Shown: positions 1-32,000, counted from the stretch's first letter. The stretch is DNA of 32,000 nt from Candidatus Saccharimonadota bacterium (GCA_015134435.1 CP043989.1:1-32000), one strand, 5' to 3'. A program made the numbers and translations. Notes: a model not told the origin generated them from the letters alone.

Positions 1-144
1 AATATATTTAATAAAAATAAAAAAAATATATTTAATAAAAATAAAAAAAATATATTTAATAAAAATAAAAAAAATATATTTAATAAAAATAAAAAAAATA
101 TATTTAATAAAAATAAAAAAAATAAATTTAATAAAAATAAAAAA
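1..144. repeat. In-frame 24-nt tandem repeat inside the infB 5' region
   Basis: The unit is aatatatttaataaaaataaaaaa. There are five perfect copies at 1-120 and a sixth at 121-144 with one substitution. Each unit encodes NIFNKNKK in the infB frame. The array may continue upstream of the window. Confidence 0.9.
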
Positions 145-1701
145 AATAATTTATTAAATAATAAATTATTAATTTATAAAAAAAAAATAATTAGTGAAAT
201 AAAAAAATATTATAGTAAAAATAATAAAAAATATATAAGACCACCAATAATAACAATTATGGGACATGTTAATCATGGAAAAACATCTTTAATTAAATGT
301 TTAAAAAATAAAAAAAACATAAATGAAAAATGAAATATAACACAAAGTATAAATACTTATTATATAAAAAATAAATATATTAATTTTACTATTTTAGATA
401 CCCCTGGTCATTCTATATTTACTGATATAAGATTAAAAAGCTTAAAAATAACAGATTTAATTATATTAATAATTGCTATAGATGACGGTATAATGAAACA
501 AACAAAAGAAATAATTAAATATATAAAAACAAATAAAAAACCAACAATTATAGCACTTAATAAAATAGATAAAATAAATTATAAATATAATATAAATATA
601 ATAAAAAAAAAATTATCTAAATACAAATTAATTTCTAAAAAATTAGATGAAAAATATTTATTTGTAAAAATATCTACAAAATTTAAAAAAGGTATAAAAA
701 AATTAATAAAATATATTTCAATATTATCTAAAAAAATAAATTTAAATACAAATATAAATAAAAACATTTCATCTGGAATTATACTTGATTCAGGAATAGA
801 TAAAAATAAAGGACCAATAAATAATATAATAATAAAACGTGGAATATTAAAAATTAAAGATATTTTATTATGTAAAAACAGTTATGGAAAAATAAAATCT
901 ATATATAATAATAAAAATAAAAAAATCAATAAATTATTACCTTCTATTCCAGGTAAAATATTAGGTCTACCTAATGAAAATTTTTCAGGAGAAAAATTTA
1001 TTACTATAAAAAATATTAAATTAGCTAAAAAAATATCAAAAATTAAAAAAAATATATATATAAAAAAAAATAATAATAATTTAAATAAATATAATATTAA
1101 TAAAAATTTATTTAATAAAAATAATAAAAAAATAAATATTATTATAAAAAGTAATACATATGATTCATTAAATATAATAAAAAAATGAATCAAAAAAAAA
1201 TACAAAAATAAAATAAATATAATATTTTATTCTATAGGTAATATTAATAAAAATGATTTAATATTATCAAAAACAACAAAATCTATAATTATAGCATATA
1301 AAATAAATATAAATAATATAAATAATAAAATATATTATAAAACAAAAATATATTTTTTTAAAATAATATATAAAATATTTAATAAATTAAAAAAAATAAT
1401 ATTAAAAAAAAATAATATTAAAAATAATAAAAAAAAATATTTAGGAAAAGCAATAATAAAAAATATATTTAAAATATCAAAAAATAATATAATAGCTGGA
1501 TGTAAAGTAATAAAAGGTAAAATAAATAAAAATAATAATATAATTATAATAAGAAAAAAAAAAATTATTCATAAAGGACAAATTAAATCAATTAAACAAT
1601 TTAAAAAAAATATAAAAATAGTTAAAAATAATATGAAATGTGGAATAAACATAAAAAATTTTTATAAAATAAAAATTGGAGATATAATATTATCTATATA
1701 A
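1..1701 (+). CDS. infB: Translation initiation factor IF-2, 5'-partial; needs TGA=Trp
   Basis: Frame 1 is open from base 1. Motifs seen are the G1 motif GHVNHGKT (262-285), DTPGH (397-411) and NKID. In-frame TGAs at 331-333 and 1186-1188 are read through, and TAA lies at 1699-1701. The track ORF 493..1188 is an internal fragment. rbfA-truB follow, as in the E. coli operon. Confidence 0.9.
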
Positions 1702-1717
1702 TTAAAAATAAAAATAT

Positions 1718-2083
1718 ATGAACAAAAAAATAAAATATAATAAAATAAATAAAGAAATACAAAAACAAATAACAAAAATTATTATCTTAAAATTTAAATA
1801 TTTAATTAAAAAAAAAGATATTATTAATATAAATTATATTTATTTATCAAAAGATTTTTCTTATATTAATATATATATTAATTTTATAAAAGAAAAAAAA
1901 ATAAAAATTATTAATAATTATATAAATGAATTTAAAAAAAATTATATATATATAATTAAAGAATTAAAAAAAAAAATATATATTAAACATATACCTAAAA
2001 TAAATTTTAAATATGACACATTTTTAAATAAAATAAATAATTTATATAAAAAAATTAGTAAAGCTAATGATAAAAAAAAATAA
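1718..2083 (+). CDS. rbfA: Ribosome-binding factor A
   Basis: A 121-aa ORF with the RbfA-like core ININYIYLSKDFSYINIYINF. It sits between infB and truB. Confidence 0.8.
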   Translation: MNKKIKYNKINKEIQKQITKIIILKFKYLIKKKDIININYIYLSKDFSYINIYINFIKEKKIKIINNYINEFKKNYIYIIKELKKKIYIKHIPKINFKYDTFLNKINNLYKKISKANDKKK

Positions 2084-2807
2084 TATAAAAAATGGATTAT
2101 TAATATTTAATAAACCTAAAAGTATAACTTCAAATAATACATTAAAAAAAATAAAAAATATATTAAAAAATAAAAAAATAGGATATATAGGATCATTAGA
2201 TCCTATATCTTCTGGAATTTTATTAATAGCATTCGGAAAAACTAATAAATTATTTAATAAAATTATTAAAAAAAAAAAAACTTATAAAATAACTATAAAA
2301 TTAGGAGAAAAAACAAATACATATGATGCATATGGATATATAACTAAAAAATATTTTATAAATGATAAAAAAAAAATAATTAAAAAAAATATAAATAAAA
2401 TAATAAAAAAATATAAAGGAAAAATATTACATAATATACCAACATATTCTTCATGTAAATACAAAGGAAAACCTTTATATAAATATGCAATAAAAGGAAT
2501 AAATATTAAAAAAAAAAAATATATATATATATATAAAATAAAAATAAATAAAATTAAAAAAAAAATTGTAAAATTAACTATAGTTTGTTCAAAAGGAACT
2601 TATATAAGAAGTATAATTAATGATATAGGAAAAAAATTAAAATATGGAGCATATATATTAAATTTAAAAAGAATTAAAATAGGTAAATTTAAAATAAAAA
2701 AATCATATAATTTTAATGATATTAAAAAAAAAAAAAATAATAATATCATTATACCACATAAAAAAATAATAAAATTATTATATAATAATAATTTAAAAAA
2801 TATATAA
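2067..2807 (+). CDS. truB: tRNA pseudouridine-55 synthase
   Basis: GLLIFNKPKSITSN...GYIGSLDPISSGILLIAFGKTNKL matches the TruB catalytic-Asp motif region (GxLDPxAxG). It overlaps the rbfA end by 17 nt. Confidence 0.88.
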   Translation: MIKKNNIKNGLLIFNKPKSITSNNTLKKIKNILKNKKIGYIGSLDPISSGILLIAFGKTNKLFNKIIKKKKTYKITIKLGEKTNTYDAYGYITKKYFINDKKKIIKKNINKIIKKYKGKILHNIPTYSSCKYKGKPLYKYAIKGINIKKKKYIYIYKIKINKIKKKIVKLTIVCSKGTYIRSIINDIGKKLKYGAYILNLKRIKIGKFKIKKSYNFNDIKKKKNNNIIIPHKKIIKLLYNNNLKNI

Positions 2808-29794: not shown

Positions 29795-29809
29795 TTATTA
29801 ATTTTTTAA

Positions 29810-31540
29810 ATGAAATATATTTCTCGTAGTTTTATAAATAAATTATTATGTTATACTAATATAGTTAAAGTTATATCATCTAAAATTAATGTTAAAAAAG
29901 TTGGTAATAAATATATAGCTTTTTGTCCTTTTCATTTAGAAAAAAATCCTTCATTTGTAATTAATGAAAATGATAAATATTATTATTGTTTTGGATGTAA
30001 AACTTATGGAAATATAATAGATTTTTTAATGCGTTTTAATCATATAAATTTTTTAGATAGTATAAAAGAATTATGTAATATTAATTGTTTAGATTTTAAA
30101 TTTAATTATTTAAATTATAATAAAAAGTTATATGATAATAAAAATTATTATTTAAAATTAATTTTAAAAATTTGTAATATTTATCATAATTCTTTATTAT
30201 TTGATAAAGAATCTTTTTTTGTTAAAAATATATTATTTAATAGAGGTATTAATATTAAATTAATAAAATTTTTTTTAATTGGTTATTCTTCTAAAAAAAT
30301 AATAAATAAAATAAATTATTATTTTAATAAAAATGAAATTAAATTTTTTATTAAATTAGGTATTTTAAAAAAAAAATCAAATAAAATTTATGATAGTTTA
30401 TATAATCGTATTATATTTCCTATATATGATATTTATAATAGAATTATAGCTTTTAGTGGTCGTACGATTTATAAAAATTATAAATATAAGTATATTAATA
30501 TTAAAAAAAATTTATATTTTAATAAAAAATATTGTTTATATGGTTTTAATTATATTAGAAAAAAAAATTTAAAATTAAATAAAATATTAATAGTAGAAGG
30601 TTATTTTGATGTAATAACTTTAAATAAATATGGTATATATTATGTAGTTGGTTTATTAGGATCTCATATATGTATTAAACAAATTATTTTTTTATATAAT
30701 TATACTAATAAAATTATTTTTTGTTATGATGGAGATGAATCTGGTTTAATATCTACTAAAAAAACATTATTTTTAATGTTAAAATATATTAATTTAAATA
30801 AAAAATTATATTTTATTTTTTTACCTTCAAATTATGATCCTGATTTATTTATTAGAGAAAATGGAATTTTAAATTTTAAAAATAAGATTAATAAAGCTAA
30901 ATCATTGTATGATATATTATGTTATTGTATATTAAAAAAAAATTGTTTTTCTTATGAAAATAAAATTTTTTTTGTAAATAAATTTTTATCTTTTATTAAT
31001 AAAATAAATTCTCCTTTAATAAAATTATTTTTATATAATAAATTATATAAAAAAGTTGGATTAAATCAAAATAAAATTATTAGTATAATAAAAAATTTTT
31101 ATAATAATAAAATATTTATTAAAAATAATAATATTTTTCGTTATTTAATAAGTATATTATTAAAATATACTTATTTATCTAATTATATAAATATAAATGA
31201 TAAAATATTTAATTTAATATATATATATAATTTATCTTTATTTTTAAAAATTGTTAATATATGTTTATTTAATAATAATATATCTATATTAGGTATTATG
31301 AATTATTTTAATAATAATAGAATAAAATTTTATATAGAATATTTATATATAAATAATTTTATATATATAAAAAAAAATAATGAAAAATTTGTTTTTTTTA
31401 ATATTTTAAATAAATTAAAAATTTTTTTAATTAATAAAAAAATAAATTTTTATTATTCAAAGTATTCTATATCTAAATGAAATATAAAAAGAAAAAAAAA
31501 AATATGAAATTTAATTAAATTAAAAAATTTTATTTTATAA
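29810..31540 (+). CDS. dnaG: DNA primase; needs TGA=Trp near the C-terminus
   Basis: Features seen are the zinc ribbon CPFHLEKNPSFVIN...YYCFGCKTYGNIIDF, FPIYDIYNRIIAFSGR and the TOPRIM motifs LIVEGYFDVI and CYDGDESG. TGAs at 31478-80 and 31505-07 are read through. TAA lies at 31538-40. Confidence 0.92.
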
Positions 31541-31665
31541 TTTTTTTAAAAAATTATAATTATTTTAAATTATAATTTAAATAAATATTTATTATAAATA
31601 ATAAATTTATAATATAATATAAATATATTAATATTTAATTAAAATTAATAATTTATAAAATTTAT

Positions 31666-32000
31666 ATGATTAAAATGAATAAAATAAATTTATTAACTAG
31701 AAAAGATGAAATAAATATAGCTAAACGTATTGAAAAAAATATTTATAATACTCAATTTTATTTAGCTAAATTATTTAAATCTATATATTTTTTTTTAAAT
31801 CAATATTATTTAGTAAAAAAAGGTAAATTACGTTTATCTGATTTAATAATAGGATTTACTGATTATGATTTGAATTATTATATTAATAATAATATTAAAA
31901 AAAAAAAAAATAATAAAAATTTATATATAAATTTTATAAATTTCAGTATTATTGAAAAAAAATTTAATTATTTAATTTTTCAATATAATATATTAAAAAA
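31666..32000 (+). CDS. rpoD: RNA polymerase sigma-70, 3'-partial; starts at region 1.2 (no region 1.1)
   Basis: MIKMNKINLLTRKDEINIAKRIEKN...LRLSDLIIGFTD aligns with E. coli sigma-70 from about residue 95 (VELLTREGEIDIAKRIEDG...ARLSDLITGFVD). An in-frame TAA at 31636-38 prevents any longer N-terminus. The gene follows rpsU-dnaG. Confidence 0.88.
   Translation, partial: MIKMNKINLLTRKDEINIAKRIEKNIYNTQFYLAKLFKSIYFFLNQYYLVKKGKLRLSDLIIGFTDYDLNYYINNNIKKKKNNKNLYINFINFSIIEKKFNYLIFQYNILK

Follow-up and report, generated by a model that had tools for sequence, protein, structure and literature searches.

In-frame UGA codons at conserved tryptophan positions in a chromosome segment of Candidatus Stammera capleta

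Genes and reading frames of the window

The use of the codon TGA (UGA in the message) was assessed in a stretch of 32,000 nucleotides (CP043989.1, positions 1–32000; the whole stretch is referred to as the window), which is assigned below to the beetle symbiont Candidatus Stammera capleta. The G+C content of the window is 14.0%. With translation table 4, 26 complete coding sequences (CDS) were defined, and 12 tRNAs are present; no rRNA genes were found in the window. In-frame TGA occurs 59 times and is confined to 15 of the 26 CDS: infB (2 codons), smpB (2), deaD (1), the 5'-3' exonuclease part of polA (polA-exo; 2), mnmG (1), valS (20), efp (2), proS (2), tilS (8), hspQ (2), rho (1), metG (10), cca (3), tsaD (1) and dnaG (2). 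These are exactly the genes that an earlier reading made from the sequence alone (the sequence-only reading) had named as interrupted solely by TGA.

Internal TAA or TAG codons were absent from all 26 CDS (8791 in-frame codons), whereas 1131 and 1343 of them appear when these CDS are read in the two other frames. The presence of 59 TGAs beside zero in-frame TAA or TAG rules out chance or decay as the origin of these frames. The terminators are TAA in 25 cases and TAG in one (proS), and TGA ends none, so that the true stops are indeed TAA or TAG, as had been claimed. When gene calls with the two tables were compared, open reading frames (ORFs) of at least 80 residues summed to 9101 amino acids with table 4 and to 5985 with table 11; the table-11 fragments merge into single frames once TGA is a sense codon. 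TGG had been described as occasional, with trxA as an example; the window has a single TGG in frame, at position 23599 in trxA (23515–23841, plus strand), a gene free of TGA. The ratio of TGA to TGG is therefore 59:1, and UGG has been replaced nearly wholly by UGA.

Residues opposite TGA in E. coli

The products of the window were aligned by tblastn to the regions of E. coli K-12 that hold the orthologues. Of the 59 TGAs, 57 could be aligned and 48 of these lie opposite a tryptophan of E. coli. A second run, in which TGA was written as X so that W-to-W scores could not favour such matches, placed an E. coli Trp opposite 46 of 54 aligned TGAs. In the non-TGA columns, which serve as background, E. 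coli has Trp in 30 of 7575 (Fisher p = 2e-91). Seen from the other side, the alignments hold 78 Trp columns of E. coli; the window has TGA in 48 of them and TGG in one (the trxA codon), and the remainder are mostly TTT, TAT or TTA. UGA is a sense codon at conserved tryptophan positions and is never required as a terminator in the window, which bears out the proposal that it is read as Trp throughout.

The three genes richest in TGA are valS (14880–17438, minus strand), in which 19 of the 20 codons are opposite Trp, including those at 15951, 16029, 16050 and 16068; metG (25361–26980, plus strand), in which all ten are, including 25451; and tilS (20841–22130, minus strand), in which seven of eight are. 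The genes in which every TGA matches a tryptophan further comprise smpB (3677–4123, plus strand; TGA 3767 and 4019), efp (17684–18238, plus strand; 17924 and 18032), mnmG (12262–14136, plus strand; 13636), rho (23894–25153, plus strand; 25034) and tsaD (28454–29467, minus strand; 28475). The TGAs at 27315 and 27777 in cca (27246–28457, plus strand) are also opposite Trp, and the third, at 28194, is unaligned. The codons in rho, metG, cca, smpB, valS and efp that had been picked out beforehand as conserved tryptophans were, every one, found opposite Trp of E. coli.

Mixed assignments were obtained for three genes: proS (19148–20848, plus strand; 19271 opposite Trp and 20195 opposite Met), hspQ (23084–23395, minus strand; 23240 opposite Trp and 23168 opposite Ser) and dnaG (29810–31540, plus strand; 31505 opposite Trp and 31478 opposite Leu). 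The two TGAs of infB (1–1701, plus strand, cut at the window start), at 331 and 1186, face Gly and Ser in poorly conserved stretches, and those of polA-exo (11245–11964, minus strand, 239 residues), at 11788 and 11356, face Met and Ser. The product of the latter gene matches E. coli Pol I solely over its 5'-3' exonuclease region, and no polymerase domain follows it. In deaD (4577–5911, minus strand) the single TGA (4580) is the last sense codon and TAA follows directly; it is the only TGA of the window that can be read equally well as a former stop codon, and it is ambiguous in this respect. The last codons of deaD, including the terminal TGA-TAA, overlap a tRNA-Val gene on the opposite strand (4515–4586).

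The extreme reduction of the genome, its richness in A+T and the truncation of polA, deaD and the C-terminus of cca relative to E. coli would fit a view of the 15 genes as pseudogenes that carry nonsense mutations while the genome decays. With 86% A+T, nonsense codons that arise at random would mostly be TAA, yet none occurs in frame, nor do these frames hold any TAG or frameshift. The TGAs fall instead on conserved Trp columns, and their positions are kept across Stammera strains that differ by 20–50% in protein sequence. The pseudogene explanation is effectively refuted and its probability is negligible.

Glycine (as in table 25) and selenocysteine are both known fates of UGA in bacteria. 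Among the aligned TGAs, however, only 1 of 57 is opposite Gly and 0 of 57 are opposite Cys, and neither a tRNA-Gly(UCA) nor a tRNA-Sec is present among the 12 tRNAs of the window, the anticodon of tRNA-Gly being UCC. Selenocysteine at 59 sites across housekeeping genes would, moreover, be incompatible with a recoding that depends on a selenocysteine insertion sequence (SECIS). A reading of UGA as either residue is accordingly extremely improbable, and tryptophan is retained as the residue for which it stands.

Lineage of the window and codon use in related strains

Candidatus Stammera capleta is an extracellular, pectin-digesting gut symbiont of tortoise beetles (Cassidinae) and belongs to the Enterobacterales within the Gammaproteobacteria. 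The PNPase and ValRS of the window are 100% identical to NCBI-sourced proteins that lie on one contig of 212,704 bp. The public ValRS (P0124) equals the window ValRS under table 4 letter for letter, with W at all 20 TGAs, so the deposited record has already been translated with UGA as Trp. Among the matches listed, about 39 further PNPases show 59–83% identity and lie on single contigs of 240–326 kb, while those outside this group (Makana, Wigglesworthia, Buchnera and a Sodalis-like symbiont) reach at most 55%. The closest other relative among these matches is CP144768.1 (268,407 bp; PNPase 83% and ValRS 78% identical), and 268,407 bp is also the size given for the Stammera of Terpsis quadrimaculata (bioRxiv 10.1101/2023.12.12.571295, Table S2). 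CP024013.1 (271,175 bp), which is named Candidatus Stammera capleta (PMC9543054), has a ValRS with 58% identity to that of the window. The Enterobacterales-like character noticed earlier agrees with these data: the PNPase is 52–53% identical to those of Wigglesworthia, Buchnera and the Sodalis-like symbiont, and Rho and GroEL are 85% and 82% identical to the E. coli proteins.

Gene order was compared between the window and its relatives (L001 and L012–L018). The blocks groES-groEL-rpsO-pnp-deaD-smpB-grpE-truB-rbfA-infB and hspQ-acpS-rplY-tilS-proS-hinT-tRNAs-efp-valS-tRNA cluster are common to all, and the order agrees on either side of the replication origin. The likely origin is the 297-bp gap between polA-exo and mnmG (11965–12261), since the cumulative GC skew over 1–32000 has its minimum near 12,000 and most genes flanking it point away; oriC of E. 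coli also adjoins mnmG. At the valS locus, the ATP synthase operon adjoins the tRNA-Ala/Thr/Tyr/Gly cluster in six of six relatives (L012–L018), and the window has at this position only a non-coding gap of 433 bp before mnmG (14137–14569). The region from efp to hinT (17439–18798) is without pepA, which all of the six relatives but L012 carry, and without the two-component system found in three of them (L014, L015 and L018).

Among 50 Stammera genomes, that of the Acromis sparsa symbiont is the smallest, with 216,430 bp when its one plasmid is counted, 13.9% G+C and 201 CDS; a chromosome of 212,704 bp together with a plasmid of roughly 3.7 kb would agree with this size. Its host belongs to the Mesomphaliini, the same tribe as the hosts of the nearest relatives of the window (bioRxiv 10.1101/2023.12.12.571295, Table S2). 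The assignment to Stammera is firm, and the symbiont of Acromis sparsa is most likely the strain, as judged from genome size, composition and relatives. Taken together, we consider it very probable that the window comes from the Ca. Stammera capleta chromosome, from a lineage that uses table 4, with the Acromis sparsa strain as the most likely source. Two scans of a GTDB-based genome collection were empty: an exact 61-nt stretch of rho had no match there, and a search for relatives based on MnmG found none, with patterns that were low-complexity peptides. Stammera genomes fail the quality control of GTDB and are absent from it (gTranslate preprint), which accounts for the empty scans.

The valS neighbourhood was taken from six other Stammera strains, and internal TGA and TGG were counted in the genes called at each locus. 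Four relatives that use code 4 have 29–43 TGA and 0–4 TGG: L012 (CP144768.1; 41 and 0), L013 (CP024013.1; 29 and 0), L014 (CP144853.1; 34 and 0) and L017 (CP144819.1; 43 and 4). The counts are 4 TGA and 27 TGG for L015 (CP144790.1, GCA_036689315.1), in which one of the four in-frame TGAs falls on a conserved valS Trp, and 0 TGA and 32 TGG for L018 (CP144787.1, GCA_036689305.1), in which all 13 genes called at the locus end in TAA. The G+C content is similar across the six loci (13.7–18.8%), and the ratio of TGA to TGG is no simple function of it. L015 looks like a transitional Stammera and L018 like an unreassigned one. These counts agree with a reported basal clade in which five Stammera genomes use code 11 and have kept prfB, and next to which GCA_036689315.1 has been placed (gTranslate preprint).

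Several other features of the window were noted. Three features lie beyond the 26 complete CDS, namely rpsU (about 29582–29794), a NifU-like ORF on the minus strand (18240–18464) and the truncated start of rpoD (about 31666); with these, the total of 29 CDS counted previously is reached. The genes groEL (8478–10130) and rho have about 24–25% G+C, against 9–13% across most of the window, and their high G+C and identity to E. coli reflect very strong purifying selection against A+T drift. A transfer-messenger RNA (tmRNA; 4161–4510, tag peptide ANNYNYALAA) adjoins smpB, and the presence of both indicates that trans-translation is retained in a genome with no more than about 200 genes. The part of infB that encodes the N-terminal region contains a 24-nt tandem repeat (window 1–236; 10.3 copies, 83% match), which is in frame and encodes NIFNKNKK repeats immediately upstream of the G domain. 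With its final 9 nt, valS overlaps a tRNA-Gly gene on the opposite strand (14818–14888), and the convergent genes cca and tsaD overlap by 4 nt (28454–28457). The cca enzyme is needed as the tRNA genes encode no CCA.

tRNA-Trp, release factor 2 and the route to reassignment

The only tRNA-Trp of the window (18502–18574, minus strand) has the anticodon CCA and the discriminator G73, and its 3' CCA is not encoded. The anticodon stem has 5 bp (A27:U43, U28:A42, G29:C41, G30:U40 and U31:A39). Compared with trpT of E. coli, A27:U43 and U28:A42 replace two C:G pairs and U11:A24 stands in place of U11:G24; A9 is present. The CCA anticodon and A24 are found in seven of seven Stammera strains (the window and the six relatives), and the 27:43 pair ranges from A:U or U:A to mismatches. 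It is mismatched in two strains, U.U in L015 (1285–1358) and G.A in L017 (CP144819.1; 3511–3585), and in both of these the stem is effectively 4 bp. The differences in tRNA-Trp do not track the code. Stammera is listed among the code-4 bacteria that have a tRNA-Trp(CCA) with a 5-bp stem (PMC13092985). The G24A change (Hirsh mutation) enables the tRNA-Trp(CCA) of E. coli to read UGA, and opening of the 27:43 pair acts alike (PMC13092985); U11:A24 and the weak top of the anticodon stem plausibly favour near-cognate reading in Stammera. The Hirsh suppressor shares CCA and U11:A24 with the tRNA-Trp of the window (PMC13092985). In Stammera, however, A24 is natural and occurs also in the TGG-only strain L018, so that it does not alone explain the reassignment. 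It predates the change of code and does not suffice to bring it about; at most it is a pre-existing permissive state, not the switch.

Following the published picture of Stammera, the reassignment may have proceeded along these lines. Extreme A+T mutational pressure would have swapped UGA stops for UAA, after which release factor 2 (RF2, encoded by prfB) would have become dispensable and been lost; the loss or failure of RF2 would be the decisive step. Changes from UGG to UGA would then be tolerated and accumulate, and the single tRNA-Trp(CCA) would read UGA without competition, C34 being mismatched with the A in the third position of the codon. In line with such a sequence of events, prfB is reported as absent from most Stammera strains, including the type strain (PMC10540940; gTranslate preprint).

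Several observations weigh against the combined picture of a table-4 Stammera from Acromis sparsa in which a tRNA-Trp(CCA) reads UGA. Nine aligned TGAs are not on a Trp of E. coli, all of them in weakly conserved stretches. A tRNA-Trp(UCA) is missing among the 12 tRNAs of the window, so that UGA would have to be read efficiently by a CCA anticodon, and A24 fails to separate the code-4 strains from the TGG-only strain L018. A tblastn search with E. coli RF2 gave no match in the window (15% of the chromosome) or in the fetched Stammera loci, a result that is uninformative genome-wide, and some code-4 Stammera assemblies still hold prfB (gTranslate preprint). As to the strain, the assignment to Acromis sparsa rests on the 216,430 bp, the 13.9% G+C and the nearest relatives.

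The CCA anticodon of tRNA-Trp and the assemblies reported with prfB (gTranslate preprint) would also fit a situation in which UGA is formally still a stop, RF2 is retained and full-length proteins arise by inefficient readthrough, an early and incomplete stage like that proposed for Providencia siddallii PSAC; the related strain L015 (GCA_036689315.1), with 4 TGA against 27 TGG, looks transitional in this sense. A TGA:TGG ratio of 59:1 and the lack of any CDS that terminates at TGA in the window argue against it. Furthermore, 20 successive UGA readings would be required for valS and ten for metG, so that inefficient readthrough would yield essentially no full-length product of these essential synthetases. 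Readthrough is for these reasons very unlikely, and we hold to a UGA that is assigned to tryptophan.

The code of the window has well-described counterparts. Both PMC10540940 and the gTranslate preprint attribute the discovery of the UGA-to-Trp reassignment in Stammera to Salem et al. 2017. For Stammera, prfB is given as absent, trnW as unchanged (reading UGG), the G+C content as 15.4% and the share of CDS with UGA as 62% (PMC10540940, Table 2). About 50 Stammera genomes have been annotated with code 4 (Garcia-Lozano et al., bioRxiv 10.1101/2023.12.12.571295), and 49 are tabulated with tRNA-Trp(CCA) and 13.9–20.4% G+C (PMC13462651). The window is like these genomes in code 4, in having tRNA-Trp(CCA) only, in its 14% G+C and in gene order, and nothing differs about the code; it stands apart from other Stammera in that no strain of the set has a genome as small or as rich in A+T, and its locus is without the atp operon, pepA and the two-component system.

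Candidatus Zinderia insecticola (Betaproteobacteria) likewise reads UGA as Trp with tRNA-Trp(CCA), lacks prfB and has a G+C content of about 13.5% (PMC10540940, Table 2), but it belongs to another class and the anticodon stem of its tRNA-Trp(CCA) is reported as 4 bp (PMC13092985), against 5 bp in the window. Candidatus Hodgkinia cicadicola, Candidatus Nasuia deltocephalinicola and the Mycoplasmatales also use code 4 with UGA as Trp and have lost RF2; in these the anticodon of tRNA-Trp has changed to UCA (PMC10540940), and the window has no such tRNA. A tRNA-Trp(UCA) is usual in code-4 organisms and is not obligatory, Stammera and Zinderia being the exceptions (PMC10540940). Like Stammera, Candidatus Providencia siddallii PSAC is a symbiont from the Enterobacterales that reads UGA as Trp and has tRNA-Trp(CCA), but it keeps a prfB that itself contains UGA (PMC10540940). 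In PSAC, UGA is found in only about 20% of the genes and some seemingly stop at it (PMC10540940), whereas 15 of 26 CDS of the window contain UGA and none stops there.

The sequence-only reading had assumed that UGA-to-Trp in endosymbionts had been described only for alpha- and betaproteobacteria and Mollicutes, a view that is outdated, as the Enterobacterales Stammera and Providencia siddallii have been published. Its suggestion of an unusual or independent case stands in one part and falls in another: the origin of the reassignment is independent of the alpha- and betaproteobacterial cases, but it is already known. The observation itself is accurate, and the claim of novelty fails on the published reassignment of Stammera capleta. 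As a discovery it adds nothing, having been published in 2017 and used in about 50 deposited annotations, with prfB, tRNA-Trp and the basal code-11 clade analysed since. For annotation the choice of table matters, as table 11 breaks 15 of the 26 complete genes of the window.

The only residual value, a small one, lies in the comparison of tRNA-Trp, in which A24 is universal and the 27:43 pair variable, as this is relevant to the reading of UGA by a CCA anticodon. One can propose, tentatively and with doubt prevailing, that a permissive tRNA-Trp(CCA) preceded the code change, that the loss of RF2 was the single sufficient step and that later weakening of the stem was lineage-specific tuning. 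If a permissive tRNA did come first, Stammera would offer a naturally occurring series in which the 4-bp-stem and Hirsh mechanisms could be put to the test in bacteria.

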